Sequence record: PZ583743.1
Direction: 5' to 3' (one strand)
DNA: 64,000 bases
Source of the DNA: a phage
Position numbers and translations under genes: made by a program. Of the stretch, positions 2 to 20,029 are shown in pieces. Numbering within the stretch: position 1 is the first letter of the stretch; each line of letters opens with the position of its first letter. The notes below the pieces were generated by a model. The model saw only the letters and a program-made list of their open reading frames with translations. It ran no database searches and was not told the DNA's origin.

Positions 2-274
2 GGATCAATTTTCTATGCTCCGTATACAGAAGGTCTTGACTTAGATGACCCTGAACATGTAGGTGCATTTAAAGTTGTAGTTGATCCAGAAAGTTTGCAG
101 CCATCTATCGGTTTATTGGTTAGATATGCTTTATCTGCAAATCCTTACACTGTAGCAAAAGATGAAAAAGAAGCAAGAATAATTGATGGTGGAGACATGG
201 ATAAAATGGCGGGTCGTTCAGATTTGTCTGTTTTATTAGGTGTTAAGCTACCAAAAATTATCGTTGATGAATAA
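2..274 (+). CDS. 24: Capsid vertex protein gp24, C-terminal fragment (partial, enters from window edge)
   Basis: Open frame from window start to TAA at 272-274 (…VLLGVKLPKIIVDE*), followed by terminator hairpin; sits directly upstream of rnlB (24.1) as on the T4 map. Confidence 0.55.
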   Translation, partial: GSIFYAPYTEGLDLDDPEHVGAFKVVVDPESLQPSIGLLVRYALSANPYTVAKDEKEARIIDGGDMDKMAGRSDLSVLLGVKLPKIIVDE

Positions 275-280
275 AAACAA

Positions 281-304
281 AGGGACCGAAAGGTCCCTTT
301 TTAT
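281..304. terminator. Rho-independent terminator hairpin (AGGGACC-gaa-AGGTCCCT + T-run), bidirectional between gene 24 and rnlB
   Basis: Perfect GC stem with short loop followed by TTTTTATTT; lies between convergent genes. Confidence 0.6.
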
Positions 305-1309
305 TTAACTTACCAATTCAATCCAAGCCGGACGAAGTACATCTTGTACCATTTTAACTAATTCCTTTTTAACCAAAGAAGGATTATCCGCTTGAGTTAG
401 AGTAATACCTTCACGAGAAGTTTCTTCCAAAATATCTTGAACAGTTAGTCCCATCACCTTTCCAAAATCTTTTGGACCAATTTCACCAATTTTAGAAATA
501 ACATTATTCACACGATTCAGTGTAACGTAACAAGCTAAAATTCCCACCAATTTATTATCAGCTTCTGACAGTTCAACTTTAGCTTTAATAGGCTTATCAG
601 ACTTTTTCTTTTCGCTAAATTTAGAGTTCTTGCATTTAATAGCTACACGATTGCCATTAGGCATCCAAGAAGGATAGCAAGGTTTCAATACATATCCTTC
701 AGCAGTAAATACTTCGCCTTTTGCTTCGGCATTCCAAACGCATTTATTTGCATCAACTAATCCAGCATGGTCTACCGTAAAATTATAATCCTGGACTACA
801 GAATCTAAATCATTTGGCAATTTAATAAGCTCTTCAAATTTACCACGACCTAAAAGTGGAGCCATTTTAAATTTGAATGTATTACAGAATGATTCCATCA
901 TATAATCATCGACATAAGTCACATCACCACTTTCTGTAGTAACAATAATGTCAAATACATAAAAATCTTTATCGCCATAATCGACATTCTTCTGAATGCC
1001 AGGTCCAGCGAATTCGCCGAAGACTTGATAAGATACAGCTGCTGAAGTTTCCATAATATCTTGTACTGCTTTAATGGAATCAGCGTAATTCTTTAGAATA
1101 ATTTCATACCCAAAGAAATCTTCAGCAGGAAGAATTGGTCCAGTACGTTTAGCACAAGTTGCTTTATCGCGTTCAATAATCAGTGAGAAATTTGTACCAT
1201 GAATCTTTTCACGAGCTACCCATTCGCCGCCAGTCAATCCTAAACTATAAAGTTTTTCAATGAATTTAGAATTGTAATGATTTTCAAGACTGCTATACTT
1301 TTTAAACAT
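305..1309 (-). CDS. rnlB: RNA ligase 2 (Rnl2, gp24.1)
   Basis: 334 aa; N-terminal nucleotidyltransferase motif EKIHGTN (KxHGxN); sequence recognised as T4 Rnl2 from memory. Confidence 0.93.
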
Positions 1310-1318
1310 AATTAATCC

Positions 1319-1597
1319 TCAAAATGTAATTTCTAACCAATCACCATCACGCTGATCACTATTGACTTTAAAGCTAAATCCTTCTTTTCTCAGCCAATCA
1401 CCAATTTCTTCAGTAATCAATTTATCGCGAGCAGTGCAATAATAACTAAAATATGTTTTACCTTGTTCAGCTGCTTTATTAGCAAGTTCCGAAAAATCTT
1501 TAATAAAACACTCTAGCTTAAACTGTTTGCTTTTAAGTGCTTTTTCGCGTAATTGATTAGCAAAAGATTCATTTTCATAAAGATCATACTGTTCCAT
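1319..1597 (-). CDS. Hypothetical protein (T4 24.2 position)
   Basis: 92-aa ORF, tightly packed downstream of rnlB. Confidence 0.6.
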   Translation of the reverse strand: MEQYDLYENESFANQLREKALKSKQFKLECFIKDFSELANKAAEQGKTYFSYYCTARDKLITEEIGDWLRKEGFSFKVNSDQRDGDWLEITF

Positions 1598-1799
1598 TTT
1601 TCACCTTCTTATTAATATGTCTTTTTCTATAGACAACTTTTTCTCGAGTCTCAAATTTATTCTTAGCAGTCATAGCTCGAGCCCATAATACAGCCACTTC
1701 CTTTGCCTGTAAGTTCAATTCACGAGCAATTTCAATGAATGACTTTCCAGACTCATGGAGTGTAAACACCACAACCTCAGTTCTCATAATCAATCTCAT
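1584..1799 (-). CDS. Hypothetical small basic protein, possible helix-turn-helix (T4 24.3 position)
   Basis: 71-aa ORF; segment GKSFIEIARELNL resembles an HTH; overlaps neighbour by 14 nt. Confidence 0.55.
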   Translation of the reverse strand: MRLIMRTEVVVFTLHESGKSFIEIARELNLQAKEVAVLWARAMTAKNKFETREKVVYRKRHINKKVKNGTV

Positions 1800-1861
1800 G
1801 TTATCGAGTTGGTGACATTATATACATCGTTTTCTGATTGTGTTTTGTGTGCTTTCAAAAT

Positions 1862-1882
1862 GAAGAAAGGGGCCGAAGCCCC
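1862..1882 (-). terminator. Terminator hairpin downstream of hoc (minus-strand GGGGCUUCGGCCCC + U-run)
   Basis: GGGGCcgaaGCCCC palindrome at 1869-1882 with TTTCTTCA following on the minus strand. Confidence 0.55.
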
Positions 1883-1887
1883 TGAGA

Positions 1888-3018
1888 TTATGGATAGGTA
1901 TAGATGATACCAGTTTCTAAAGCAGTTTTATGAATGATGTATCCATTACGCGATTCTTGAACATCAACTTCTGGATAGTCTTTCATCATCTTCTGAAGAG
2001 TGTAACGATGCAAGTAGTACTTACTATCTGGATCGTCAGTTTTCCAATCTTTACCTTCTTCAGTCATTTTTTGGATTTCATCCATAACCCACCAACCGCA
2101 CCAGATATAAGCTGAAGTACGATGTGGAAGAGGATGAACATAAGGTAATTCACCTTCTGGTTCCGGAGCAACTTTATCAGTCACTTGAACTTGACCTGTG
2201 GCTTTAACTGTTTTACTATCATAGTCAGTTGCTGTAACGACAGCAGTAACTTCAATAGTTTGACTTCCAATAGATGAGGTATCAACAGTATATACGTTAG
2301 TTGACCCTTCCACAGGAGAAGAATCTTTCTTCCATGAGTAAGTAATTTGTGCTGCTTCAGGTGCGCCAGTAACATTAGCAGTAAATGTAGCCGAAGCATC
2401 CTGCTGAACATTAATAGAAGGAGGAGTCAATGCAATCTGTGGATTCATTGTCTTCTTATTAACTGTCAATGATACTTCATTAGAAGTAACGCTCAGTGCA
2501 TCATAATCTGTCGCAGTTACTTGAGCTACACACTTAATTCTTTTTACTCCACTTGTAGTTGGAGTATAGTTAAATGTAGAGTTAGTTTCTCCACCAACTT
2601 GTGAATCATCTACATACCACTGATACGTAGCAGATGCGCCCAATGGCTGTGAAGCTAAGGCAGCAGTAAATTCAACGGCTGTTCCGATTACTCCTTCTGG
2701 AGGACTATTAGGAGTTACAGCTAAGGTAGTTGTCTGTGTCTTATTTTGAACTGTGATAGTTGTACTAATTTCAGCTGTTTCAGCTTCAGCTTCTGGAACT
2801 GTATTTGTTGCAACCACTTTAATAGTCTTTTGACCAGCAGGTCCTTTTAATACATAATTAAAGGTTGCTTCAGCTCCATCCTGTGGAGCATTATCTACAC
2901 TCCAAGCATAGGTAATAGTTCCACCTCCAGTTTCACCACTGGGTGTAGCAGTAAACTGCTGAGTCTGATCTATAACTCCAGTAGGTGTTTTAGGAGTTAT
3001 ATCAACTGTAAAAGCCAT
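1888..3018 (-). CDS. hoc: Hoc, highly immunogenic outer capsid protein
   Basis: 376 aa, same length as T4 Hoc; repeated Ig-like segments (…TYxWxVD…, …TYQWYVDD…, …ITYSWKKD…). Confidence 0.9.
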   Translation of the reverse strand: MAFTVDITPKTPTGVIDQTQQFTATPSGETGGGTITYAWSVDNAPQDGAEATFNYVLKGPAGQKTIKVVATNTVPEAEAETAEISTTITVQNKTQTTTLAVTPNSPPEGVIGTAVEFTAALASQPLGASATYQWYVDDSQVGGETNSTFNYTPTTSGVKRIKCVAQVTATDYDALSVTSNEVSLTVNKKTMNPQIALTPPSINVQQDASATFTANVTGAPEAAQITYSWKKDSSPVEGSTNVYTVDTSSIGSQTIEVTAVVTATDYDSKTVKATGQVQVTDKVAPEPEGELPYVHPLPHRTSAYIWCGWWVMDEIQKMTEEGKDWKTDDPDSKYYLHRYTLQKMMKDYPEVDVQESRNGYIIHKTALETGIIYTYP

Positions 3019-3027
3019 AAGTTATCC

Positions 3028-3708
3028 TTATTTTAATGTTACGAAAGAAGAGTTGCGTGTTTCACGAATTAGAACTGATCCGTCACGGTTAATGTAGTAA
3101 ATTAAGCTAAATAAAGTTTGATGTGCCGACGCGTGTTCAAAACTAGTTGGGTGAGATTTCCAATCCGGAGTTTCAGCAATCCACTGGTAAATCCACCAAG
3201 GAACAGTGCAGAATCCTGGATTTTTTCCAATCAGCTGAAGATTCGGACTAAAGTTTTCCGGAAGAGTAAATACAGACGGCTTTTCAGATTCAATAATCTC
3301 AGCTACAGCCTGTTCGAATTTTTCTTCAACAAAAGGAGTATCTTCAATCAAAACATCGGTATTTTCAGGAATTTTATCCGTTTCGACTACTTCAATTTTA
3401 ATATCAGATTTAACCGGAGAATCAATCAGAAGTGCTGCTTCTGGATTGACCTCTTCATCGTCATATTTTAATCCCTCTGCAGCATCAGCAGCATCAATTA
3501 AGTCTTTAATAGATAACCCATCAGTCTCTGGCATAGGTTCACTAGCGAGCTTCTGGAGGGCTTCTTCAATATCAACAACGATATTATCAAAAGATTTATT
3601 CTTTTTGACTTTTATACCAAACTGTTCAGCATATTCAGCTAATTTAGCTTTAGCTTCTTTATTATCATCAAGAGCCTTCAGCTCTGCAATATAATCTTTA
3701 TCTATCAT
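3028..3708 (-). CDS. inh: Inh, inhibitor of prohead protease gp21
   Basis: 226 aa, acidic N-terminal half; length and position between hoc and uvsW match T4 inh. Confidence 0.8.
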   Translation of the reverse strand: MIDKDYIAELKALDDNKEAKAKLAEYAEQFGIKVKKNKSFDNIVVDIEEALQKLASEPMPETDGLSIKDLIDAADAAEGLKYDDEEVNPEAALLIDSPVKSDIKIEVVETDKIPENTDVLIEDTPFVEEKFEQAVAEIIESEKPSVFTLPENFSPNLQLIGKNPGFCTVPWWIYQWIAETPDWKSHPTSFEHASAHQTLFSLIYYINRDGSVLIRETRNSSFVTLK

Positions 3709-3721
3709 AATATTTCCTCAG

Positions 3722-3729
3722 TATAAATA
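3722..3729 (+). promoter_or_regulatory. T4 late promoter (TATAAATA) for uvsW
   Basis: Exact TATAAATA about 30 nt upstream of the uvsW ATG. Confidence 0.6.
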
Positions 3730-3758
3730 TAGATATATTTATTACATGGTATTTAGAC

Positions 3759-5270
3759 ATGACTGACATTAAAGTACATTTTTATGATTTTAGTCACGTG
3801 AGAATTGATTGTGAAGAAAGTACATTTCATGAACTCCGTGATTTCTTTAGCTTTGAAGCTGATGGGTATCGTTTTAATCCGAAGTACAAATATGGTCATT
3901 GGGATGGACGAATCCGTCTTTTAGATTATAATCGCCTTCTTCCATTCGGCTTAGTCGGGCAAATTAAAAAGTTCTGTGATAACTTTGGCTATAAAGCTTG
4001 GATTGACCCACAGATTAACGAAAAAGAAGAATTATCAAGAAAAGATTTTGATGAATGGCTTTCTAAATTAGAAATCTATTCAGGAAATAAAAGAATTGAA
4101 CCGCATTGGTATCAAAAAGATGCAGTGTTCGAAGGATTAGTTAATCGTCGTAGAATTCTTAATCTTCCAACATCCGCAGGTAAATCCTTAATTCAAGCTT
4201 TGCTTGCGCGTTATTATTTGGAAAATTATGAAGGTAAAATTCTTATCATTGTTCCAACAACTGCTTTAACAACTCAGATGGCTGATGACTTTGTTGACTA
4301 TCGTTTATTCAGTCACGCAATGATAAAGAAAATTGGCGGTGGAGCATCAAAAGATGATAAATATAAAAATGATGCGCCAGTCGTTGTTGGTACATGGCAA
4401 ACTGTAGTAAAACAACCGAAAGAATGGTTCTCACAGTTTGGAATGATGATGAATGATGAATGCCATCTTGCTACAGGAAAAAGTATTTCATCTATCATAT
4501 CAGGTTTAAATAACTGCATGTTCAAATTCGGTTTGTCTGGTTCATTACGCGATGGCAAAGCCAATATCATGCAGTATGTTGGAATGTTCGGTGAAATATT
4601 TAAGCCAGTAACGACCTCTAAATTAATGGAAGATGGACAAGTAACTGAGTTAAAAATTAATAGTATTTTTCTTCGCTATCCCGATGAGTTCACTACTAAA
4701 TTAAAGGGAAAAACTTACCAAGAAGAAATAAAAATTATTACTGGACTCAGTAAAAGAAATAAATGGATCGCTAAATTAGCTATTAAACTTGCGCAAAAAG
4801 ATGAAAACGCTTTTGTCATGTTTAAGCATGTATCACATGGTAAAGCTATTTTCGATTTAATTAAAAATGAATACGATAAAGTTTATTACGTATCAGGGGA
4901 AGTTGATACCGAAACTCGAAACATAATGAAAACCTTAGCTGAAAACGGTAAAGGAATAATTATAGTAGCTAGTTATGGTGTATTTTCTACTGGTATTTCA
5001 GTTAAAAATCTGCATCACGTTGTTTTAGCACACGGTGTTAAATCTAAAATTATTGTATTGCAAACAATAGGTCGTGTATTACGTAAGCATGGTTCTAAAA
5101 CAATCGCAACGGTCTGGGACCTCATTGATGATTGCGGTGTTAAGCCAAAATCTGCTAATACGAAAAAGAAATATGTTCATTTGAACTATCTTTTAAAACA
5201 CGGCATTGATCGTATTCAGCGCTACGCAGATGAAAAATTTAATTACGTAATGAAAACAGTTAATTTATAA
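3759..5270 (+). CDS. uvsW: UvsW, SF2 RNA-DNA/DNA-DNA helicase
   Basis: 503 aa; Walker A PTSAGKS, DECH box (MNDECHLATGK); recognised as T4 UvsW. Confidence 0.93.
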   Translation: MTDIKVHFYDFSHVRIDCEESTFHELRDFFSFEADGYRFNPKYKYGHWDGRIRLLDYNRLLPFGLVGQIKKFCDNFGYKAWIDPQINEKEELSRKDFDEWLSKLEIYSGNKRIEPHWYQKDAVFEGLVNRRRILNLPTSAGKSLIQALLARYYLENYEGKILIIVPTTALTTQMADDFVDYRLFSHAMIKKIGGGASKDDKYKNDAPVVVGTWQTVVKQPKEWFSQFGMMMNDECHLATGKSISSIISGLNNCMFKFGLSGSLRDGKANIMQYVGMFGEIFKPVTTSKLMEDGQVTELKINSIFLRYPDEFTTKLKGKTYQEEIKIITGLSKRNKWIAKLAIKLAQKDENAFVMFKHVSHGKAIFDLIKNEYDKVYYVSGEVDTETRNIMKTLAENGKGIIIVASYGVFSTGISVKNLHHVVLAHGVKSKIIVLQTIGRVLRKHGSKTIATVWDLIDDCGVKPKSANTKKKYVHLNYLLKHGIDRIQRYADEKFNYVMKTVNL

Positions 5271-5286
5271 GGGCTTCGGCCCTTTG
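5271..5286 (+). terminator. GGGCUUCGGCCC tetraloop hairpin after uvsW (terminator or RNA stability element)
   Basis: GGGCttcgGCCC directly after the stop codon, followed by TTTGG; T-run is short. Confidence 0.45.
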
Positions 5287-5296
5287 GAGAAAAAAG

Positions 5297-5527
5297 ATGT
5301 TACTAGAATTTAAACAATTTCTTTATGAAGCTTCTATTGATGAATTTATGGGTAAAATTGCCTCTTGTCAAACATTAGAAGGTCTAGAAGAACTTGAAGC
5401 TTATTATAAGAAAAGAGTTAAAGAAACTGAATTAAAAGATACTGATGACATCTCAGTCAGAGATGCTTTGGCAGGAAAAAGAGCTGAATTAGAAGATTCA
5501 GACGATGAAGTAGAAGAAAGCTTTTAA
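5297..5527 (+). CDS. uvsW.1: UvsW.1, small acidic protein
   Basis: 76-aa ORF with good RBS spacing after uvsW. Confidence 0.75.
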   Translation: MLLEFKQFLYEASIDEFMGKIASCQTLEGLEELEAYYKKRVKETELKDTDDISVRDALAGKRAELEDSDDEVEESF

Positions 5528-5582
5528 ATTAAAAAAGGCCCAACCAAAAAGGAAGGGCCAAAACTATAGACTAAAGGTCACA

Positions 5583-5750
5583 CTATAGCAAAAGTTGTGT
5601 TTCATTTAATTGTTCTTCAGAACTTTCTGAAACTGGTAGTTCTTTAATGTAATTATAGCAAGGCCCAGGATGTACAGGACCTTTGTCTGTTTCAACAACC
5701 AATGCAGAATCGATTGGAGTTTTACAGACAACACAAATCTTATCTGACAT
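5583..5750 (-). CDS. Small Cys-containing protein (uvsY.-2 position), 55 aa
   Basis: Hand-translated minus-strand ORF MSDKICVVCKTPIDSALVVETDKGPVHPGPCYNYIKELPVSESSEEQLNETQLLL*; below the ORF-track size cutoff. Confidence 0.5.
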   Translation of the reverse strand: MSDKICVVCKTPIDSALVVETDKGPVHPGPCYNYIKELPVSESSEEQLNETQLLL

Positions 5751-5778
5751 GATTGTCTCCTCTAAATTATATATCTAT

Positions 5779-6003
5779 TTATATAACTCTCATATGCATA
5801 TCAATACCCATATCTTTAGAATAAAAATATTCATCAAGATATCCGGCAAATTTTCCTTTAATATAAAGTACATCTTCACCGCATGGGTGGTCGGCCAGGA
5901 TACGAATATCCTGACGCTTGAGATTATACTTTTTCATTAAGAATTGAATTTCCGTTTTGAATTCTTCTTCATAATTAAAAGCATCATCAATGCTATATTT
6001 CAT
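5779..6003 (-). CDS. Hypothetical protein (uvsY.-1 position)
   Basis: 74-aa ORF; ATGA start/stop overlap with uvsY suggests translational coupling. Confidence 0.65.
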   Translation of the reverse strand: MKYSIDDAFNYEEEFKTEIQFLMKKYNLKRQDIRILADHPCGEDVLYIKGKFAGYLDEYFYSKDMGIDMHMRVI

Positions 6004-6416
6004 TATTTTCCAGCCTCAAATGCTCGCATGTCTTGAATATGCTTAATAGCAAATCCACGTGATTTAATAGCATCAAGAGCTCCGCTACAGAAATCCAATA
6101 AAATTCCCCAATATTGTAATGAAGTATCAACTTTTAAAACATCCTTATCAGCTGATAGAACTGTCTTCATTTCTGATTTCTCATAACGATCCATACTAAA
6201 TTCATCACCATCTCCTCGTCCCGAGTAGTAGTCTAATTTAGCTTTAAGAGCAACTTTTTTCTGCGCTTCAATTCTAAGCATTTCCTTTTTAATACTTGAA
6301 TGCTTATTAAGCCATTTACTATATAACATCACATTATTAGCTGCTTCATACTGTAATTTAGTCGAATCTATAAACACATCTTTCTTCAATTCTTCTTGAA
6401 GATCTTCTAATTTCAT
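6003..6416 (-). CDS. uvsY: UvsY recombination mediator
   Basis: 137 aa, recognised as T4 UvsY. Confidence 0.93.
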   Translation of the reverse strand: MKLEDLQEELKKDVFIDSTKLQYEAANNVMLYSKWLNKHSSIKKEMLRIEAQKKVALKAKLDYYSGRGDGDEFSMDRYEKSEMKTVLSADKDVLKVDTSLQYWGILLDFCSGALDAIKSRGFAIKHIQDMRAFEAGK

Positions 6417-12832: not shown

Positions 12833-13797
12833 TGTATTCTTTAGAGGAATTTAATAATCAAGCAATAAACGCAGATTTCCAACGTAATAATATGTTTAGC
12901 TGCGTTTTTGCGACAACTCCATCAACTAAAAGCTCTTCGTTGATAAGTTCAATTAGCAACTTTTCCTATAATAACTTGGGCCTAAATTCAGATTGGTTAG
13001 GATTGACTCAAGGCGATATTAATCAGGGAATTACTACGCTAATTACTGCTGGCACACAAAAACTGATAAGAAAATCAGGGGTTAGTAAATATCTTATTGG
13101 TGCCATGAGTCAACGTACAGTTCAAAGTTTATTAGGCTCATTTACAGTTGGTACATATTTAATTGACTTCTTTAACATGGCATATAACTCATCTGGATTG
13201 ATGATATACTCCGTAAAAATGCCAGAGAATAGATTATCCTATGAAACTGACTGGAACTATAATTCTCCTAATATTCGCATAACCGGAAGAGAATTAGACC
13301 CTTTGGTTATTTCATTTAGAATGGATTCAGAGTCGTGTAATTATCGTGCAATGCAAGACTGGGTTAACGCTGTTCAAGACCCAGTAACTGGACTGCGTGC
13401 TTTGCCACAAGATGTCGAGGCAGACATTCAGGTTAATCTTCATGCTCGTAATGGATTACCTCATACTGCTGTGATGTTCACTGGATGCATTCCAGTGTCA
13501 GTGAGCGCTCCTGAGTTATCATACGATGGAGATAACCAAATAACTACATTTGATGTTACTTTTGCGTATAGAGTCATGCAGGCTGGAGCGGTTGATAGAC
13601 AAGCTGCGCTTGAGTGGCTTGAATCTGCTGCTATAAATGGCATTCAAAGCGTTCTCGGAAATAGCGGAGGTGTTACTGGACTATCTAATTCGCTTTCACG
13701 ACTTAGTAGATTAGGAGGAACTGCAGGAAGCATTTCAAACATTAATACTATGACAGGAATTGTCAATTCGCAAAGTAAAATATTAGGAGCAATATAA
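12832..13797 (+). CDS. 54: Baseplate tail-tube initiator gp54
   Basis: 321 aa; ATGT overlap with gene 48; T4 gp54 position. Confidence 0.9.
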   Translation: MYSLEEFNNQAINADFQRNNMFSCVFATTPSTKSSSLISSISNFSYNNLGLNSDWLGLTQGDINQGITTLITAGTQKLIRKSGVSKYLIGAMSQRTVQSLLGSFTVGTYLIDFFNMAYNSSGLMIYSVKMPENRLSYETDWNYNSPNIRITGRELDPLVISFRMDSESCNYRAMQDWVNAVQDPVTGLRALPQDVEADIQVNLHARNGLPHTAVMFTGCIPVSVSAPELSYDGDNQITTFDVTFAYRVMQAGAVDRQAALEWLESAAINGIQSVLGNSGGVTGLSNSLSRLSRLGGTAGSISNINTMTGIVNSQSKILGAI

Positions 13798-13801
13798 CAA
13801 T

Positions 13802-13819
13802 GGGGACCGAAAGGTCCCC
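13802..13819. terminator. Bidirectional terminator hairpin GGGGACC-gaaa-GGTCCCC
   Basis: Perfect 7-bp GC stem between convergent gene 54 and the 96-aa ORF; T-run follows on the plus strand. Confidence 0.6.
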
Positions 13820-13825
13820 ATATTT

Positions 13826-14116
13826 TTATTTACGGAATGAAATAAAAGCAGCAACTGAAGCAACTAAACTGTCTTCAATATAAACTTCAATTTTTACCGG
13901 AGCTTCTGACTCAAATTTACCTGTTACTACACCTTGGAAAATGCTTTCAGTCTGTTCTGGCTTTGAAAAATTTTCAGAAGGAAAAATTCCGAACTTTTTA
14001 TCTGTTCCAAAAATTTTGATAAATTCATCGTAAACTGCTTCATTAAAAGCGTTATCAGCAGGAATAACGCCTTCAACTACGAGTTCTTGACCTAAAAAGC
14101 GTAAAGAAGATTTCAT
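13826..14116 (-). CDS. Hypothetical protein (alt.-3 position)
   Basis: 96-aa ORF preceded by a GAGGAA RBS and an early promoter. Confidence 0.7.
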   Translation of the reverse strand: MKSSLRFLGQELVVEGVIPADNAFNEAVYDEFIKIFGTDKKFGIFPSENFSKPEQTESIFQGVVTGKFESEAPVKIEVYIEDSLVASVAAFISFRK

Positions 14117-14147
14117 TTTGTGTTCCTCATGTTATGTCAGTAAAATT

Positions 14148-14177
14148 ATTATAACACAACACGAGGGACTTGTAAAC
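14148..14177 (-). promoter_or_regulatory. T4-type early promoter (GTTTAC, 18 nt, TGtTATAAT)
   Basis: Minus strand reads GTTTAC-aagtccctcgtgttgtgt-TATAAT with an extended -10 TG; drives the 96-aa ORF. Confidence 0.6.
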
Positions 14178-16234
14178 TACATTTTGAACTTTTTAGACAT
14201 TTCGTTGATGTTAACCAAAGAAGCCAAGATTTGAGAAACTTCGTTTTCCTCTTCTTTTGATTCTTCTACAAGGAATTGATTAAACCCAGCCATTGGACGA
14301 ACTTCACCAGTTTCCATTAGATGGTCGCCATCATATACCGATTCTTCTAATTGTTCAGAAGGAGGAACGATTGTGCCTTCGATTAGATACTTGTTATAAG
14401 CAGTTTCTTTCATCATGTATGTACTCACTTTATTAATCTTCAGCAAAATTCCACGCGGTAAAATAACTTCAGCTTCTGACGGAAATCCTGATAAATGACC
14501 CGGAACGATAACTTTGATTCGCTCAGCTCCTTTAATTACCATACCCACGCTAGTTTCAGCATCTTCATTCGCATAAGCAGAATGACTGCCCATATGCATT
14601 AAATCTTCAGCATCAACGGAACCTTCTCCTTCACCAGAAAATACTGCGCTGGAATCATCTAGAGCCATATAGTTTTTACCATACTCACCGAAGATATTTG
14701 GTTTAAGCGATGTGGATACGAAGTTCTTAAAATAGAACATTTTATTTTCAATATTATGACGTAAAGTTTTAAAGGTAACTTCTTGGCCACGGTAAAGCGT
14801 AGTTCCTGGAGGAAGAACTGATCCTTTGGCAAAAGCAGAATCCATCGTCTCGATGTGTTTAATAGCTCGTTCCATATATTCTTCACGAGTAGAATCCGGT
14901 TTACCTAAAAGGAACGAGTTCATTTCAACATATGAATCTGCACAATAATCTTCAATTACATCAGACTCAGCCTGAGTTAATCCTTTTGGAGTTACTTCGG
15001 TGCTTGCGTATTCATATGCCTGAGCAGCAGATTCATTAATCAATTTATAAATGCCATTCATGACAAATTGAATAATAGCTACCTTTTCATCTGGCGTGGC
15101 TTTAGAACCTTTAACTAAATCATTGATAATTTTCTTAATAACATCAAAGCTATTAGAAATATTAATGTCAGCGAGATCGCTTAAAATTTTATCGGTTTTA
15201 TAATCAAAGAATTCTTTATTCTTTAAATATTCTTGAGAACCTTGATGTGTTATATCGCTCTGCAGTCTGATAGACGGATCACGTAAACGTGCATGGGCCA
15301 ATGCAATATGATTTCGGAAGCTTTCTAGTTCATAATCGTTAGATTTAAAACGAGAAGCACTTCTCATACCACCGATAGCTCCTTTGCCGAAGTTTGAACC
15401 AATCTGAATAACGCCAGAGTTCATTGGTCCTTCTGCTTTATATACCGGAACTTTAGATTCAAACTCTTGATATTTCTTAGCAGCGAAGCTATCACCCTGA
15501 AGTGAAGCATCGACGGTAGAGTATTGAGCTTGTGCTGCTAATCGACGACTAATTTTAGTTTTCTGAATAACAGCTTGATCTGTGCGCTTATCATTTTCTA
15601 AAGCAATAGAAGCAGCAACAGCAACAGCTTTAGGAACAGCATTACCTGTTTTAACATCTACATAAACATCACCAACCTTTGATTCAACCTTTGTGAATAA
15701 CTCAGTTGAAATAGGAGGTACACCTGGAATGTCTTCTAAATTGGCATTTTTACGGTAAACCATAATATATGCATATTTCTTATCATAGTCCCAGATTTCT
15801 TTTAAAAGAACATATCGACCTGCTCCTTTAGTACGTACTAAACGGTCAGCAATAACTTGAATTTGTCGAGCTGCGCCGTTTGTTTTACTCTTTAGTACGC
15901 GAAATAGGCATGCGTCAATTTTATACTGTTTCATTGTTTGAAGAGCAGTATCAAAAACCGCATTAATAACACCAATTGGATTTCCACCCAAGTTTTTAAG
16001 TTTAACTAATGATAGTTTCTCATTAACACCTATCATTACGATATGCATCATTTTATCGCCTGGCTTAACGTTTTTATTTGTATCACCGCCAGAGGTGTAT
16101 GTACAAAATCTAAATCCAGGAAGCACACTTTCTTCACCTGCTTGAATAGCAAAAATTTGAGGTATTTTATGCTTAGGATTTAAGTTAACAACCGGCGCCG
16201 AAGCGCCGTCAAATAATTCTGTAATAAGTTCCAT
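14177..16234 (-). CDS. Alt-like ADP-ribosyltransferase paralog (685 aa)
   Basis: N-terminal ~230 aa near-identical to the adjacent Alt (MELITELFD…); C-terminal ART motifs YRGQ (Arg), FVSTSL (STS), SEAEVILPRG (ExE); starts 3 nt after the upstream Alt stop. Confidence 0.85.
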   Translation of the reverse strand: MELITELFDGASAPVVNLNPKHKIPQIFAIQAGEESVLPGFRFCTYTSGGDTNKNVKPGDKMMHIVMIGVNEKLSLVKLKNLGGNPIGVINAVFDTALQTMKQYKIDACLFRVLKSKTNGAARQIQVIADRLVRTKGAGRYVLLKEIWDYDKKYAYIMVYRKNANLEDIPGVPPISTELFTKVESKVGDVYVDVKTGNAVPKAVAVAASIALENDKRTDQAVIQKTKISRRLAAQAQYSTVDASLQGDSFAAKKYQEFESKVPVYKAEGPMNSGVIQIGSNFGKGAIGGMRSASRFKSNDYELESFRNHIALAHARLRDPSIRLQSDITHQGSQEYLKNKEFFDYKTDKILSDLADINISNSFDVIKKIINDLVKGSKATPDEKVAIIQFVMNGIYKLINESAAQAYEYASTEVTPKGLTQAESDVIEDYCADSYVEMNSFLLGKPDSTREEYMERAIKHIETMDSAFAKGSVLPPGTTLYRGQEVTFKTLRHNIENKMFYFKNFVSTSLKPNIFGEYGKNYMALDDSSAVFSGEGEGSVDAEDLMHMGSHSAYANEDAETSVGMVIKGAERIKVIVPGHLSGFPSEAEVILPRGILLKINKVSTYMMKETAYNKYLIEGTIVPPSEQLEESVYDGDHLMETGEVRPMAGFNQFLVEESKEEENEVSQILASLVNINEMSKKFKM

Positions 16235-16237
16235 GAT

Positions 16238-18334
16238 TTATCCTTGAACGAACTTGTAAGGCATGTTTGTAATATCTATGCAAGACGCAATAATTCCAAG
16301 AGATGATTCTACTTTCTGTTTAACATTTGATGAAACAAATGATGCAAAGTCAACTCTGTCTTCTATTTCAATATCACCTGTCATTGCAACTACTTCACCA
16401 GTTTCCATTAGACGGTCACCGTCATAAATTACTGATTCGGTGAGTTCTTCCGTAGTCATAACTTCAGCTTGAATGAGTTTTGTATTATTAGATGTTGTTC
16501 CGTCATTATTAGAAGCATCAGTTATTTTATTAACTTTGACCATCAATCCGCGCGGTAGAATTACTTCAGCTTCTGTTGCTATTCCGAGACTTCCTGGATA
16601 TACAACATTAACTTTATGAGCTCCATCAATTGCCCATCCTATTTGAACTTTAACGTATTCAGGATTTTCTTTATACGCTCTTATTTCGTTTGGATTAATA
16701 GTTATTCCTTCTTCATTTTTATCAACTGTTAATTCATTACGAGCTTCTGGTTCTAAAAGACCGATACCAGCATGTGTAATTCCAAAACGTCCAAAAATGA
16801 TAGGAGTTAAAGAAGTAGATACAAAATTTCTGAAATAGAACACTTTATTTTTAACTAGCGCTTCGTATATAGGAGCAGTCATACTTTGAGCACGATAAAC
16901 TGTAATGCCTTCTGGTATACGGTCACCATTTTCAAAAGCTGAATCTAAATTATTTATCGCAGATTCAATTTCTTTTTCACTCATTACATCATATCGTTCT
17001 GGATTGTAGCGGCCTAAAAGAAGATTATTGATGTCAGTATATCCTGATCCACAATACTCTCTAATGCCGCGCTTTTGCGATGGAGTATATTTAGAACCAT
17101 CACGTGCAATGGTAATATCAATCATTGGACCTGCACCAATTCCAGAAAAACTATAAATCATTCGTTTGAGGAATTTAGTTTTTGCTGCGTTCCAGGAATT
17201 TTTAGTTATTTCTTCCCAGACTTCATCTGGCTGCCCTTTACGAGTTTTATTATGTTTATCAAGCCAATTATCTTTATATTCTTCAAAGAATTGATTAACA
17301 GCTGCTGCGTATTTCTCTAAACATTTTATTGAAGTAGTTGGTTCATTTTTAATCGCATTAAGAATTACATCTTTAATTTTTTCAGAAACTTCATTAACCT
17401 CACTTTTTGAAAAGAATTTATAGTCATAGTGAAGTTCATCTGCGGTTCCTTCGGCAATAATTTTTGCTGCCTTAGTTTTAGAAGCTAATGAATTAATTCC
17501 AAGCTTCATTTCTTCTGCTTCTGGAATTAAAGGAGCAGTAGCAGGTTTATTAAAATTAGCTGCGGTAGATTCATACTTCTGAAATAATTCACTTTCAAAT
17601 CTAGAAGATTCTAATGATTGACTTTGTGCAATTGCTCTACGGGAAATTTTAACTTTAACTATTACAGCTTGGTCAGAACGTTTATCATTTTCTTGCGCAA
17701 TAGATGCTGCAATTGCTTCATTTTTAGTTACTTGAGCTCCAGTATCTTTATTGATATAAACATCGCCGACCTTCGATTCAACTTTAGTAAAGAGCTCGGT
17801 ACTAATTTCCGGAACTCCTGGAATGTCTTCTAGTGATACATTTTTGCGATGTATAAGAATATATGCATACTTTTTATCATAATCCCAGAGTTCCTTAAGA
17901 AGGACGTATCTGCCACCTGAACGACTACGGATAAGTCTATCAGCAATAAGTTGAATTTGTCGAGCTTGACCAGCAGTTTTAGACTTAAGAATACGAAGCA
18001 TGCAGGCATCAATTTTATACTGACGCATCGTCTGCATTGCAACAGTAAAAACTGAATTGATATAATTAATTGGGCTTGGACCGAGACCTTTCAATTTAGC
18101 AATTGAACCTTTAGCAGTTAATGTAAAAGGAACAATGTGCATCATTTTATCGCCCATCTTTAGATCACGGTTAGTATCACCTCCAGATGTATAGGTACAT
18201 AAACGAAAGCCTGGTTGTTCAATTGCGTCATCAACATGAACTGAAAAAATTTGCGGTATTTTCTTCTTTGGATTTAAGTTTGTAATCGGAAGAGTAGTAT
18301 CTTCGTCAAATAATTCTGTAATGAGTTCCATCAT
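16238..18334 (-). CDS. alt: Alt, head-packaged ADP-ribosyltransferase (698 aa)
   Basis: MELITELFDEDTTLPITNLNPKK… N-terminus; ART motifs VYRAQ, FVSTSL, TEAEVILPRG; late promoter upstream; which of the two paralogs is orthologous to T4 alt is uncertain. Confidence 0.85.
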   Translation of the reverse strand: MMELITELFDEDTTLPITNLNPKKKIPQIFSVHVDDAIEQPGFRLCTYTSGGDTNRDLKMGDKMMHIVPFTLTAKGSIAKLKGLGPSPINYINSVFTVAMQTMRQYKIDACMLRILKSKTAGQARQIQLIADRLIRSRSGGRYVLLKELWDYDKKYAYILIHRKNVSLEDIPGVPEISTELFTKVESKVGDVYINKDTGAQVTKNEAIAASIAQENDKRSDQAVIVKVKISRRAIAQSQSLESSRFESELFQKYESTAANFNKPATAPLIPEAEEMKLGINSLASKTKAAKIIAEGTADELHYDYKFFSKSEVNEVSEKIKDVILNAIKNEPTTSIKCLEKYAAAVNQFFEEYKDNWLDKHNKTRKGQPDEVWEEITKNSWNAAKTKFLKRMIYSFSGIGAGPMIDITIARDGSKYTPSQKRGIREYCGSGYTDINNLLLGRYNPERYDVMSEKEIESAINNLDSAFENGDRIPEGITVYRAQSMTAPIYEALVKNKVFYFRNFVSTSLTPIIFGRFGITHAGIGLLEPEARNELTVDKNEEGITINPNEIRAYKENPEYVKVQIGWAIDGAHKVNVVYPGSLGIATEAEVILPRGLMVKVNKITDASNNDGTTSNNTKLIQAEVMTTEELTESVIYDGDRLMETGEVVAMTGDIEIEDRVDFASFVSSNVKQKVESSLGIIASCIDITNMPYKFVQG

Positions 18335-18354
18335 ATCCTCTCTAGTGTTTATTC

Positions 18355-18362
18355 TATTTATA
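18355..18362 (-). promoter_or_regulatory. Late promoter (TATAAATA on minus strand) for the alt operon
   Basis: Plus-strand TATTTATA about 20 nt upstream of the alt ATG; consistent with Alt being a late, capsid-packaged protein. Confidence 0.55.
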
Positions 18363-18383
18363 AAATTAAAGGCCCGAAGGCCT

Positions 18384-18572
18384 TTAATAATCTAATGGTA
18401 AGAGAGTACGATATATTTCAAACTTTGGCCCTTTTTCATAGGCATCAAATGTTTCTGTAAATTTATTATAAGCATATGCATCTACAAATTCGAGAATGAC
18501 TTGTGATACAGAAGTAGAAACATCTCCACCTTCTTTTTGAGCTATAACAATTGTTTCTAAGTAAGCTTTCAT
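18384..18572 (-). CDS. Hypothetical protein (62 aa) between ligase and alt
   Basis: ORF with ATGA coupling to gene 30; followed by hairpin AAAGGCCcgaaGGCCTTT at 18368-18385. Confidence 0.6.
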   Translation of the reverse strand: MKAYLETIVIAQKEGGDVSTSVSQVILEFVDAYAYNKFTETFDAYEKGPKFEIYRTLLPLDY

Positions 18573-20029
18573 AGACCAGTTACCTCATGAAAATCACCAA
18601 ATACATCCTCGAATGTATTAGCTTTAGTTTTATCTTCACGTAAACGAATCGCAATCGGAAGAAATAATTTAACGTAATCAGTGCGGCCATCAGATTTTAA
18701 CCAACCGTTGCATTCGCACTCTAGAATTTTTCCAATATAATAATTTTGGTTTTCCATAATGCGAGTACGGTCAAGTTCATGTGATTTTACACCAGCTTTA
18801 TCTTTTAAACCTGAACCAGCATTTACCTTAATTTTTCCACACTCTGATTCAAGAATAAATCCACCTGCTTTAGTAGGGTCTTTACGGTGAGGATAAATTC
18901 CTACAATTTTTAAATCAACATCAATTACTTCTTTAAATTTATAGAGATTTTTTGAACGAGCATTTTCCCACAATCCATCGGTATTTTTGAGAATAATACC
19001 TTCAAGACCTCGGTCAATATATTTTTTATAAATTACCTTAGCTTCATCTAGGTTATTTACTACCTGGTTTTCAATTAAAATTACTTTATCATATCCTGAT
19101 GTCATTTGTTCTAGTTTAGAAAAACGTACATCATATTTTAAACGAAACGCCGGAAGACCGTATATTTCTACCAACGGGACATAATCCCAGACCTGAAACT
19201 TCATACATTTGGCTTCTTTTTCTGAAATAGTTCCCTTTAAAGATTTATTGGCGATTCCATTAGAAGCAGTACGAGATTCAGCTACTTCAGCAAACTCTTT
19301 AACTTTACTATTTTCAGGAGAGTCAAAAAGAAAATCTAGGCCTTCTGGCTCCTTTTCAACTTGCTCATGGTATACCAATTCGCCATCAATTAACACACCT
19401 TCTGGATGAATCTGGCGGGCTTCAGCAGTCATTTTGATTAACTCTTCCTTAAGAAGATCTAATCCTAGATATTCATTACCAGCTCGCGATAAAAGACGAA
19501 CATCATCTAATTCATCGCCTCGGACTTCAGCAAAACACCGAGCTCCATCTGCTTTTAACTGCGCAAAAGCTGGAAACTTGATATTCTTACTAATGCCTTT
19601 TTCATCATAAGAACTTGCCAGCATTTGAGGTTGTTCAGGAATTAAACCTGGCCAAACTTTGTTTGCAATAGATACTGAAGCACCACATTCAAGGTCTCGC
19701 ATCATAACTCGACGCAAAACTTCAACATCATCCTTTTTACCATCGGTGATATATCCAGTTAATTCCTCAATTGCTGCATTGCCAGTTAATTTCCGAGTAG
19801 CTAACGTGAATTCAATGAAGTCAAGCATATCGGTAATAGTCAGCATTCCAAAACTCTGGGTAGCAATACCAGGTTTAGGCCATTTCTTGATATAATACTG
19901 TAACCCACGAGAATAAGTCAGACGATATACTCGTTTAAGCAATTCATTATCTTTATTCTTTTCAAGAATTGCTTGCTTCTGCTTAGTTGAACCAATAGAT
20001 GCTATTTCATTTAGAATTTCAAGAATCAT
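18569..20029 (-). CDS. 30: ATP-dependent DNA ligase gp30
   Basis: 486 aa; adenylation motif KADGAR; recognised as T4 DNA ligase. Confidence 0.95.
   Translation of the reverse strand: MILEILNEIASIGSTKQKQAILEKNKDNELLKRVYRLTYSRGLQYYIKKWPKPGIATQSFGMLTITDMLDFIEFTLATRKLTGNAAIEELTGYITDGKKDDVEVLRRVMMRDLECGASVSIANKVWPGLIPEQPQMLASSYDEKGISKNIKFPAFAQLKADGARCFAEVRGDELDDVRLLSRAGNEYLGLDLLKEELIKMTAEARQIHPEGVLIDGELVYHEQVEKEPEGLDFLFDSPENSKVKEFAEVAESRTASNGIANKSLKGTISEKEAKCMKFQVWDYVPLVEIYGLPAFRLKYDVRFSKLEQMTSGYDKVILIENQVVNNLDEAKVIYKKYIDRGLEGIILKNTDGLWENARSKNLYKFKEVIDVDLKIVGIYPHRKDPTKAGGFILESECGKIKVNAGSGLKDKAGVKSHELDRTRIMENQNYYIGKILECECNGWLKSDGRTDYVKLFLPIAIRLREDKTKANTFEDVFGDFHEVTGL

Follow-up and report, generated by a model that had tools for sequence, protein, structure and literature searches.

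The window analysed here, a 64,000-nucleotide (nt) stretch of phage DNA (sequence record PZ583743.1), carries two adjacent minus-strand genes for ADP-ribosyltransferases (ARTs) of the Alt type, referred to below as the upstream and the downstream ART. We interpret them as two functional mono-ADP-ribosyltransferases of the T4 Alt family that arose by an old tandem duplication and are packaged, processed and injected, the upstream gene corresponding to alt and the downstream gene to an intact form of alt.-1/alt.-2; the probability of this reading is put at about 85%. The phage is a T2-like Tequatrovirus, a coliphage. Phage ADP-ribosyltransferases are an active topic, with RNAylation by ModB and ART-based defence such as CmdTAC among the recent themes. 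Knowledge of injected ARTs comes nearly entirely from T4, which is atypical in having lost the second copy and in carrying an alt cassette unlike the common T2-type. Most T-even phages, many therapeutic isolates included, probably inject two different ARTs.

Two divergent paralogues with complete catalytic motifs

A first-pass annotation of the window, made from the sequence alone, had described two adjacent open reading frames (ORFs) of about 690 amino acids (aa), separated by 3 nt and both retaining complete R / S-T-S / E-x-E motifs. These observations stand. The ORFs encode 698 or 697 aa (upstream) and 685 aa (downstream), are 41% identical in BLASTP (E 2e-162) and are spaced as described (Table 1). 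Membership of the T4 Alt family was assessed with phrog_802 and with Pfam PF03496 together with PF26846. Both proteins match phrog_802 ('Alt-like RNA polymerase ADP-ribosyltransferase') from end to end (E 3.4e-272 upstream, 2e-255 downstream) and both pass the gathering threshold of Pfam ADPrib_exo_Tox (23.4), scoring 129 and 73.1 bits, respectively. The full-length phrog_802 alignment places the Alt-specific N domain of about 240 aa in both copies, and close homologues carry precomputed PF26846 assignments. The genomic context, which was also considered for membership, is that of the T4 alt locus (ligase, alt.1, alt, ..., alt.-3, 54).

Catalytic residues were located in a family alignment of 60 sequences, comprising 57 of the longer N-domain representatives, the two window proteins and T4 Alt. 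They are R480, S505-T-S507 and E587-A-E589 in the upstream protein and R482, S507-T-S509 and E587-A-E589 in the downstream protein, and the corresponding columns are kept in 58–59 of the 60 sequences; neither copy lacks any of the catalytic residues. Identity between the paralogues varies strongly along their length: 68% over the N-terminal residues 1–238, 12% over the central residues 239–415, 36% over the ART core (416–625) and 42% over the C-tail (626 to the end). The central and catalytic regions thus differ as substantially as the first-pass annotation had stated, whereas its near-identical N-terminal 230 or so aa were an overstatement, the 68% extending over about 238 aa and only MELITELFD being identical.

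With the downstream N domain as the query, an exhaustive HMMER search of 1.84 billion representative proteins returned 69 clusters, and an ART domain was present in 58 of the 60 long N-domain sequences scanned. At the sequence level the N domain is nearly exclusive to Alt-like proteins. A word-indexed homologue search with the N domain alone yielded only six fragments and was uninformative. In two proteins the Alt N domain is not accompanied by an ART that Pfam recognizes: P0189 (485 aa) contains a degenerate ART with K in place of R, S-C-S and ENSE, and the metagenomic P0190 (541 aa) has an unrelated C-terminal half.

Distribution of the pair, selection and the T4 remnant

A 4.8-kb query across the ART pair matches 545 phage records, T2, RB32 and PP01 among them, the top match being Shigella phage SF2-1 (98.6%). 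Tallies for Tequatrovirus are estimates from an evenly spaced sample of the approximately 495 records: about 400 have both genes intact, about 90 have alt and a remnant and about nine have one hybrid gene. For the downstream central region, 300 records show an identity of 95% or more, and the region is also present in about 100 others, where the match is merged into that of the upstream copy. Comparison of the downstream gene with that of phage pSs-1 gives 0.127 synonymous (dS) and 0.003 nonsynonymous (dN) substitutions per site and a dN/dS ratio of 0.025, and the ratio is low in all four regions (0.013–0.117). By every available sequence test, the downstream copy is under strong purifying selection and functional. 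The tandem duplication is old, since Dhakavirus carries orthologous copies at the same locus. Two genera have long retained both ARTs under purifying selection, which speaks against redundancy between them.

The first-pass annotation could not say whether T4 has one or two such genes. In T4, a single intact alt of 682 aa precedes two short genes, alt.-1 (61 aa) and alt.-2 (67 aa), which are annotated there as an ancient duplication of the initial portion of alt. Several lines of evidence identify alt.-1/alt.-2 (NP_049810 / NP_049809) as the stump of the downstream gene of the window: their sequences match downstream residues 1 to about 116 almost exactly, their PHROG families fit the downstream copy far better than the upstream copy, and the unusual C-terminus of alt.-2, SSKCSLQVPRVVL*, results from reading the last 40 or so nt of the downstream gene out of frame. 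The intervening segment (Table 1) is flanked by CTAAA(G/A)AGT microhomologies, and the junction is identical in the locus sequences of T4 (about 4105–4113) and phage N2 (about 3501–3509); in T4 the remnant is further split by a stop codon. Despite this common deletion, N2 carries the T2-type upstream cassette and T4 the T4-type. Because the two phages share the deletion but differ in the cassette, deletion allele and upstream cassette have been reassorted by recombination.

Phage KAW1E185 has a single 685-aa hybrid gene that follows the upstream copy up to the ExE motif and the downstream copy thereafter. The crossover lies inside ACTTCAGCTTCTG, which encodes the catalytic motif E-A-E-V (KAW1E185 locus 2753–2802; window 14450–14476 and 16547–16573), the crossover nucleotides specifying E-A-E-V-I-L-P-R-G. 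The ART paralogues thus recombine at the ExE-coding sequence. A third Tequatrovirus paralogue, considered for sb3 and Elenatom with their three annotated Alt genes, was rejected, as these are frameshift-split genes.

Repeated loss or fusion, in the form of the 1690-nt deletion in T4 and N2 and the single hybrid in KAW1E185, is what would be expected if the downstream copy were a redundant duplicate heading for loss and adding only Alt dosage; about one fifth of the sampled Tequatrovirus records have no intact downstream copy, and alt is non-essential in T4. This explanation is nevertheless improbable. The low gene-wide dN/dS includes the ART core, the gene is intact in about 400 records, an orthologous second copy has been retained in Dhakavirus despite saturated synonymous divergence, and a central region unrelated to that of the upstream copy is not that of a simple dosage duplicate.

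Mosaic structure and relation to Dhakavirus

Tandem Alt genes occupy the same locus in Dhakavirus, two in IME341 and three in ABTNLS3. In both genera the C-termini read ...KF(V/I)QG in up-type and ...KFKM in down-type copies, and the identities of the central, ART and tail regions pair up-type with up-type and down-type with down-type across the genera. The upstream protein of the window matches T4 Alt closely at both ends, with 99% identity in the N domain and 94% in the C-tail (dS 0.15 in each), whereas the central region and the ART core reach only 33% (dS about 1.3) and 66% (dS about 1.2). Against copy 1 of IME341 the identities are 46% in the N domain (dS 2.2), 65% in the central region (dS saturated), 95% in the ART core (dS 0.47) and 54% in the C-tail (dS saturated). 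As synonymous divergence from T4 is about 1.2–1.3 in the central and catalytic cassette compared with 0.15 in the flanks, the upstream gene is a mosaic in which this cassette has been exchanged between conserved flanks. The comparison with IME341 further indicates that the catalytic ART module alone (16448–17086) has moved between genera more recently than the flanks diverged. A very recent transfer, as initially read from an identity of about 96%, was rejected; a dS of 0.47 makes the exchange younger than the flanks, not recent. In 317 records the T2-type upstream cassette is conserved at 95% identity or more; T4-type alleles are 47–48% identical to it.

The N domains (15521–16216 and 17612–18313) run opposite to the orthologous pattern of the central, ART and tail regions: paralogues within a genus are 62–68% identical, and any between-genus pair 42–47%. 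This reversal suggests that each lineage has either undergone gene conversion or seen its N domains co-evolve with a partner of its own, for instance the head core.

The three tandem Alt-like genes of the Salmonella phage ABTNLS3 (locus 244–6356) are full length and encode 631, 693 and 707 aa. The first copy (631 aa) is highly divergent in every region, with a C-tail identity of just 13–23%. A true third Alt copy is present only in this Dhakavirus.

Expression signals

The TATAAATA box, a T4-type late promoter element, lies about 20 nt before the start codon of the upstream ART and is the sole such box in 13700–18700. A scan of the same region found no terminator-like hairpin or strong promoter-like site between the two ART genes. 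The late promoter invoked by the first-pass annotation is present as a perfect box, and co-transcription of both ARTs from it is a reasonable inference from the sequence. The final codons of the upstream gene contain an AGGA Shine–Dalgarno sequence, 7 nt ahead of the downstream ATG, so translational coupling of the two genes is possible.

Upstream of the promoter, at the end of alt.1, a G+C hairpin (aaaggcc-ttcg-ggccttt) is followed by a T-run. It went unflagged in a simple terminator scan, and the annotations of phages KAW1E185 and fPS-90 list its equivalent as a putative terminator; this terminator-like site may insulate the late alt unit from transcription arriving from upstream. The hairpin overlaps the alt.1 stop codon on one side and the late promoter of the alt unit on the other. 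At the other end of the unit, the top-scoring promoter-like site in 13700–18700 (TTTACA-17-TATAAT with an upstream TG) abuts the downstream ART stop codon and points towards alt.-3, a gene probably served by an early promoter of its own. The hairpin between alt.-3 and gene 54, whose counterparts in KAW1E185 and fPS-90 are annotated as terminators at the same place, is where the late alt transcript probably ends.

Predicted processing and packaging, and structure

Each T4 head holds about 40 copies of Alt, packaged in its core, and the gp21 prohead protease cleaves the protein behind ITE-6 and LTE-619, which takes off 63 C-terminal residues (PMC5694885). Both window ARTs have I-T-E at residues 4–6. 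A second [L/I]-x-E motif, which the first-pass annotation had overlooked, is found as L-T-E at 630–632 in the upstream protein and as L-E-E at 629–631 in the downstream protein, and is followed by a conserved SV(I)YDGD.LMETGE segment. In the family alignment, E6 is present in 57 of 60 sequences (with L or I two residues earlier in 53) and E631 in 59 of 60 (with L/I629 in 50). By analogy with T4 Alt, gp21 would cleave both window ARTs at both sites, giving predicted mature masses of 70.2 kDa (upstream) and 69.1 kDa (downstream).

The N-terminal region had been regarded as the part concerned with capsid targeting and protease processing. The propeptide and the ITE motif at 4–6 are indeed kept; the rest of the assignment is less apt, since T4 Alt loses just six N-terminal residues (PMC5694885), from which the N domain of about 240 aa would be expected to travel with the mature enzyme and to be more than a targeting or processing signal.

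These features bear on the possibility that the downstream protein is an ART that acts late inside the producing cell and is neither packaged nor injected. Packaging has been shown for T4 Alt alone, and proteomic evidence for the second copy was not found in the literature. Retention of the identical MELITE propeptide, of both gp21 motifs and of the nearly family-exclusive Alt N domain, together with a late promoter common to both ARTs and no promoter of its own detected for the downstream gene, makes a role confined to the producing cell very improbable. That the second copy is an artefact of assembly or annotation (a collapsed or expanded repeat), for which the tandem arrangement itself speaks and nothing beyond, can be dismissed: the copies are 41% identical in protein, and the same arrangement recurs at 95–98.6% nt identity in hundreds of independently sequenced phages.

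As modelled with AlphaFold (pLDDT, the predicted local distance difference test, 74.5), the downstream protein comprises an alpha/beta N domain (residues 12–225), an all-helical region (250–470), the ART (475–625) and a disordered tail of low pLDDT. A sequence search of the Protein Data Bank turned up no solved structure of Alt: it gave no hit for the downstream copy and only weak matches, to CdtA and iota, for the upstream copy. The N domain was considered as a degenerate ART in the style of binary toxins, a proposal that was rejected: only the C-terminal ART aligns (about 200 residues) and the N-domain model has no ART-fold hit. A GNAT (acyl-CoA N-acyltransferase) fold was also considered for the N domain, the criteria being structural similarity to GNAT enzymes and a recognizable acetyl-CoA-binding motif. 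Foldseek comparison of the N-domain model (15515–16234) with BFVD returned weak but significant matches (E 1e-7 to 1e-4, template modelling score about 0.5, 12–15% identity) to large uncharacterized proteins of unrelated myoviruses, namely Erwinia phiEa2809, Vibrio VP-1 and Kuja, Dickeya RC-2014, Shigella MK-13 and Agrobacterium Atu_ph07; A0A0A0YVG6, A0A4P2TEA4, A0A2L0UZ96 and A0A6J5KPZ7 are among the BFVD entries hit. Proteins with zeta-toxin-like kinase, deaminase and ParB/Srx domains are also among them.

Organization of the locus

The minus-strand order is DNA ligase (gene 30), alt.1, the 698/697-aa ART, the 685-aa ART and alt.-3, with genes 54 and 48 on the plus strand converging on the alt unit (Table 1). 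The program-made ORF list has the upstream ORF begin at 18334 (698 aa), within a tandem ATG-ATG at 18329–18334. The second ATG (18331) is likely to be the true start, because it matches the MELITE start of T4 Alt and is better spaced from GAGG; the 698-aa call would then be one codon too long. The neighbouring alt.-3 is of interest in its own right: in T4, mutants with a C-terminal extension of Alt.-3 escape CmdTAC defence by stabilizing the antitoxin CmdA (bioRxiv 10.1101/2024.02.24.581662).

Table 1. Features of the alt region in window coordinates.
Feature	Position	Strand	Basis or remark
DNA ligase, gene 30	18569–20029	-	
alt.1, 62 aa, upstream neighbour	18384–18572	-	Pfam Phage_blade (PF24647), E 1.9e-29
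G+C hairpin with T-run, terminator-like	18368–18385	-	Sequence read
T4-type late promoter box TATAAATA	18355–18362	-	Exact 8/8 match; putative function, from T4 late-promoter consensus
Upstream ART gene, 697 aa from second ATG	16238–18331	-	Positional orthologue of T4 alt
Spacer ATC, 3 nt	16235–16237	-	Upstream TAA to downstream ATG
Downstream ART gene, 685 aa	14177–16234	-	
Downstream N domain, alpha/beta, aa 7–238	15521–16216	-	Alt-specific; predicted in mature protein
Downstream central all-helical region, aa 239–415	14990–15520	-	Most divergent between paralogues
Downstream ART catalytic domain, aa 416–628	14351–14989	-	
Downstream predicted C-terminal propeptide, aa 632–685	14180–14341	-	Homology to T4 Alt LTE-619 site
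Segment deleted in T4 and N2, 1690 nt, frameshifting	14197–15886	-	blastn end points, junction sequences
Sigma-70 / T4-early-like promoter	14148–14176	-	Scan; 11/12 match
alt.-3, 96 aa, neighbour outside ART pair	13826–14116	-	Pfam DUF5498, E 1.4e-64; T4 annotation
Bidirectional hairpin terminator between alt.-3 and gene 54	13800–13821	.	Scan

Discussion

In the scheme that we favour, the TATAAATA promoter (18355–18362) would drive one transcript through both genes late in infection, and each precursor of about 76–78 kDa would enter the prohead. There, as judged from T4 Alt, gp21 would trim both proteins behind I-T-E(6) and, near the C-terminus, behind L-T-E(632) (upstream) or L-E-E(631) (downstream), leaving about 70 and 69 kDa. 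The mature proteins would be ejected with the DNA into the next host, where they would use NAD+ to ADP-ribosylate host proteins, an arginine specificity being predicted from the E-x-E motif. Because the central helical regions are unrelated and the ART cores only 36% identical, we infer that overlapping but non-identical target sets are most likely the reason for which both ARTs have been kept. The idea of two injected ARTs with different targets, put forward in the first-pass annotation, is plausible.

Several points weigh against this scheme. Packaging, cleavage, injection, activity and targets are all attributed to the pair by homology to T4 Alt, and identity to T4 Alt in the catalytic half is only 66% (upstream) and 36% (downstream). 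T4 alt itself is non-essential (PMC5694885). The downstream gene is just a remnant in T4, N2, fPS-90 and GRNsp7, and KAW1E185 manages with its single hybrid, so the gene is dispensable in some settings. Literature searches turned up no virion proteomics detecting both paralogues; on the second paralogue in T2/T6-like phages they found annotation-level remarks only, and no activity assay or target identification.

A wider and decidedly speculative proposal, which we regard as doubtful, is that tandem Alts form a modular packaged-effector system, in which a lineage-specific N delivery domain and a cleavable C-tail frame central/ART cassettes interchangeable between genera, and in which the same N fold may deliver non-ART cargo in unrelated large myoviruses. 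Within a genus, gene conversion or joint evolution with the head core may keep the N domain and the C-tail similar. If this proposal were true, T-even phages would inject a variable cocktail of one to three ARTs with distinct host or defence-system targets. The conserved flanks and variable cassette also provide ready-made chimeras, and T4, N2 and KAW1E185 are natural knockouts.

Comparison with known systems

T4 Alt (NP_049811), an NAD+–arginine ADP-ribosyltransferase that is packaged and injected, has the locus and late-promoter arrangement of the window pair and the same architecture, consisting of a 6-aa propeptide, an N domain, a helical region, an R-S-ExE ART and a cleavable C-tail. The downstream copy is 41–42% identical to it overall, and the targets of T4 Alt (Arg265 of RNA polymerase alpha and others) cannot be assumed for either window ART. 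T4 alt.-1/alt.-2 differ in being a broken remnant, whereas the window gene is intact, 685 aa long and under purifying selection. The pairs of T2, RB32, PP01, HY01, Shfl2 and SHFML-11/6phi13 are the same two genes at 95–98.6% nucleotide identity, and nothing substantive differs. The Dhakavirus arrays (IME341, ABTNLS3 and 'altA' in IME08) share both locus and orientation with the window. C3-like, Vis and binary-toxin components (Vis 4xzj, C3bot, iota Ia, CdtA and VIP2), in contrast, are secreted bacterial toxins without the Alt N domain or head-processing signals.

The tandem pair and the idea of its divergence are already known: annotating the pair is routine, and published work has commented on it. 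In RefSeq and many GenBank records both genes bear the name of Alt-like ADP-ribosyltransferases; as both are standard annotated genes, the observation of the first-pass annotation loses most of its novelty. Paralogous duplication of alt as the origin of alt.-1/alt.-2, and a full-length duplicate in phage 44RR, were reported earlier (Nolan et al. 2006, PMC1524935). A 2026 paper on 6phi13/SHFML-11 describes two paralogous Alt-like proteins of 43.29% identity and suggests that they have diverged in function and broadened the range of targets (PMC13600099). To this picture, the present analysis adds the mosaicism and cassette exchange of the upstream gene and the recombination of the paralogues at the ExE-coding sequence.

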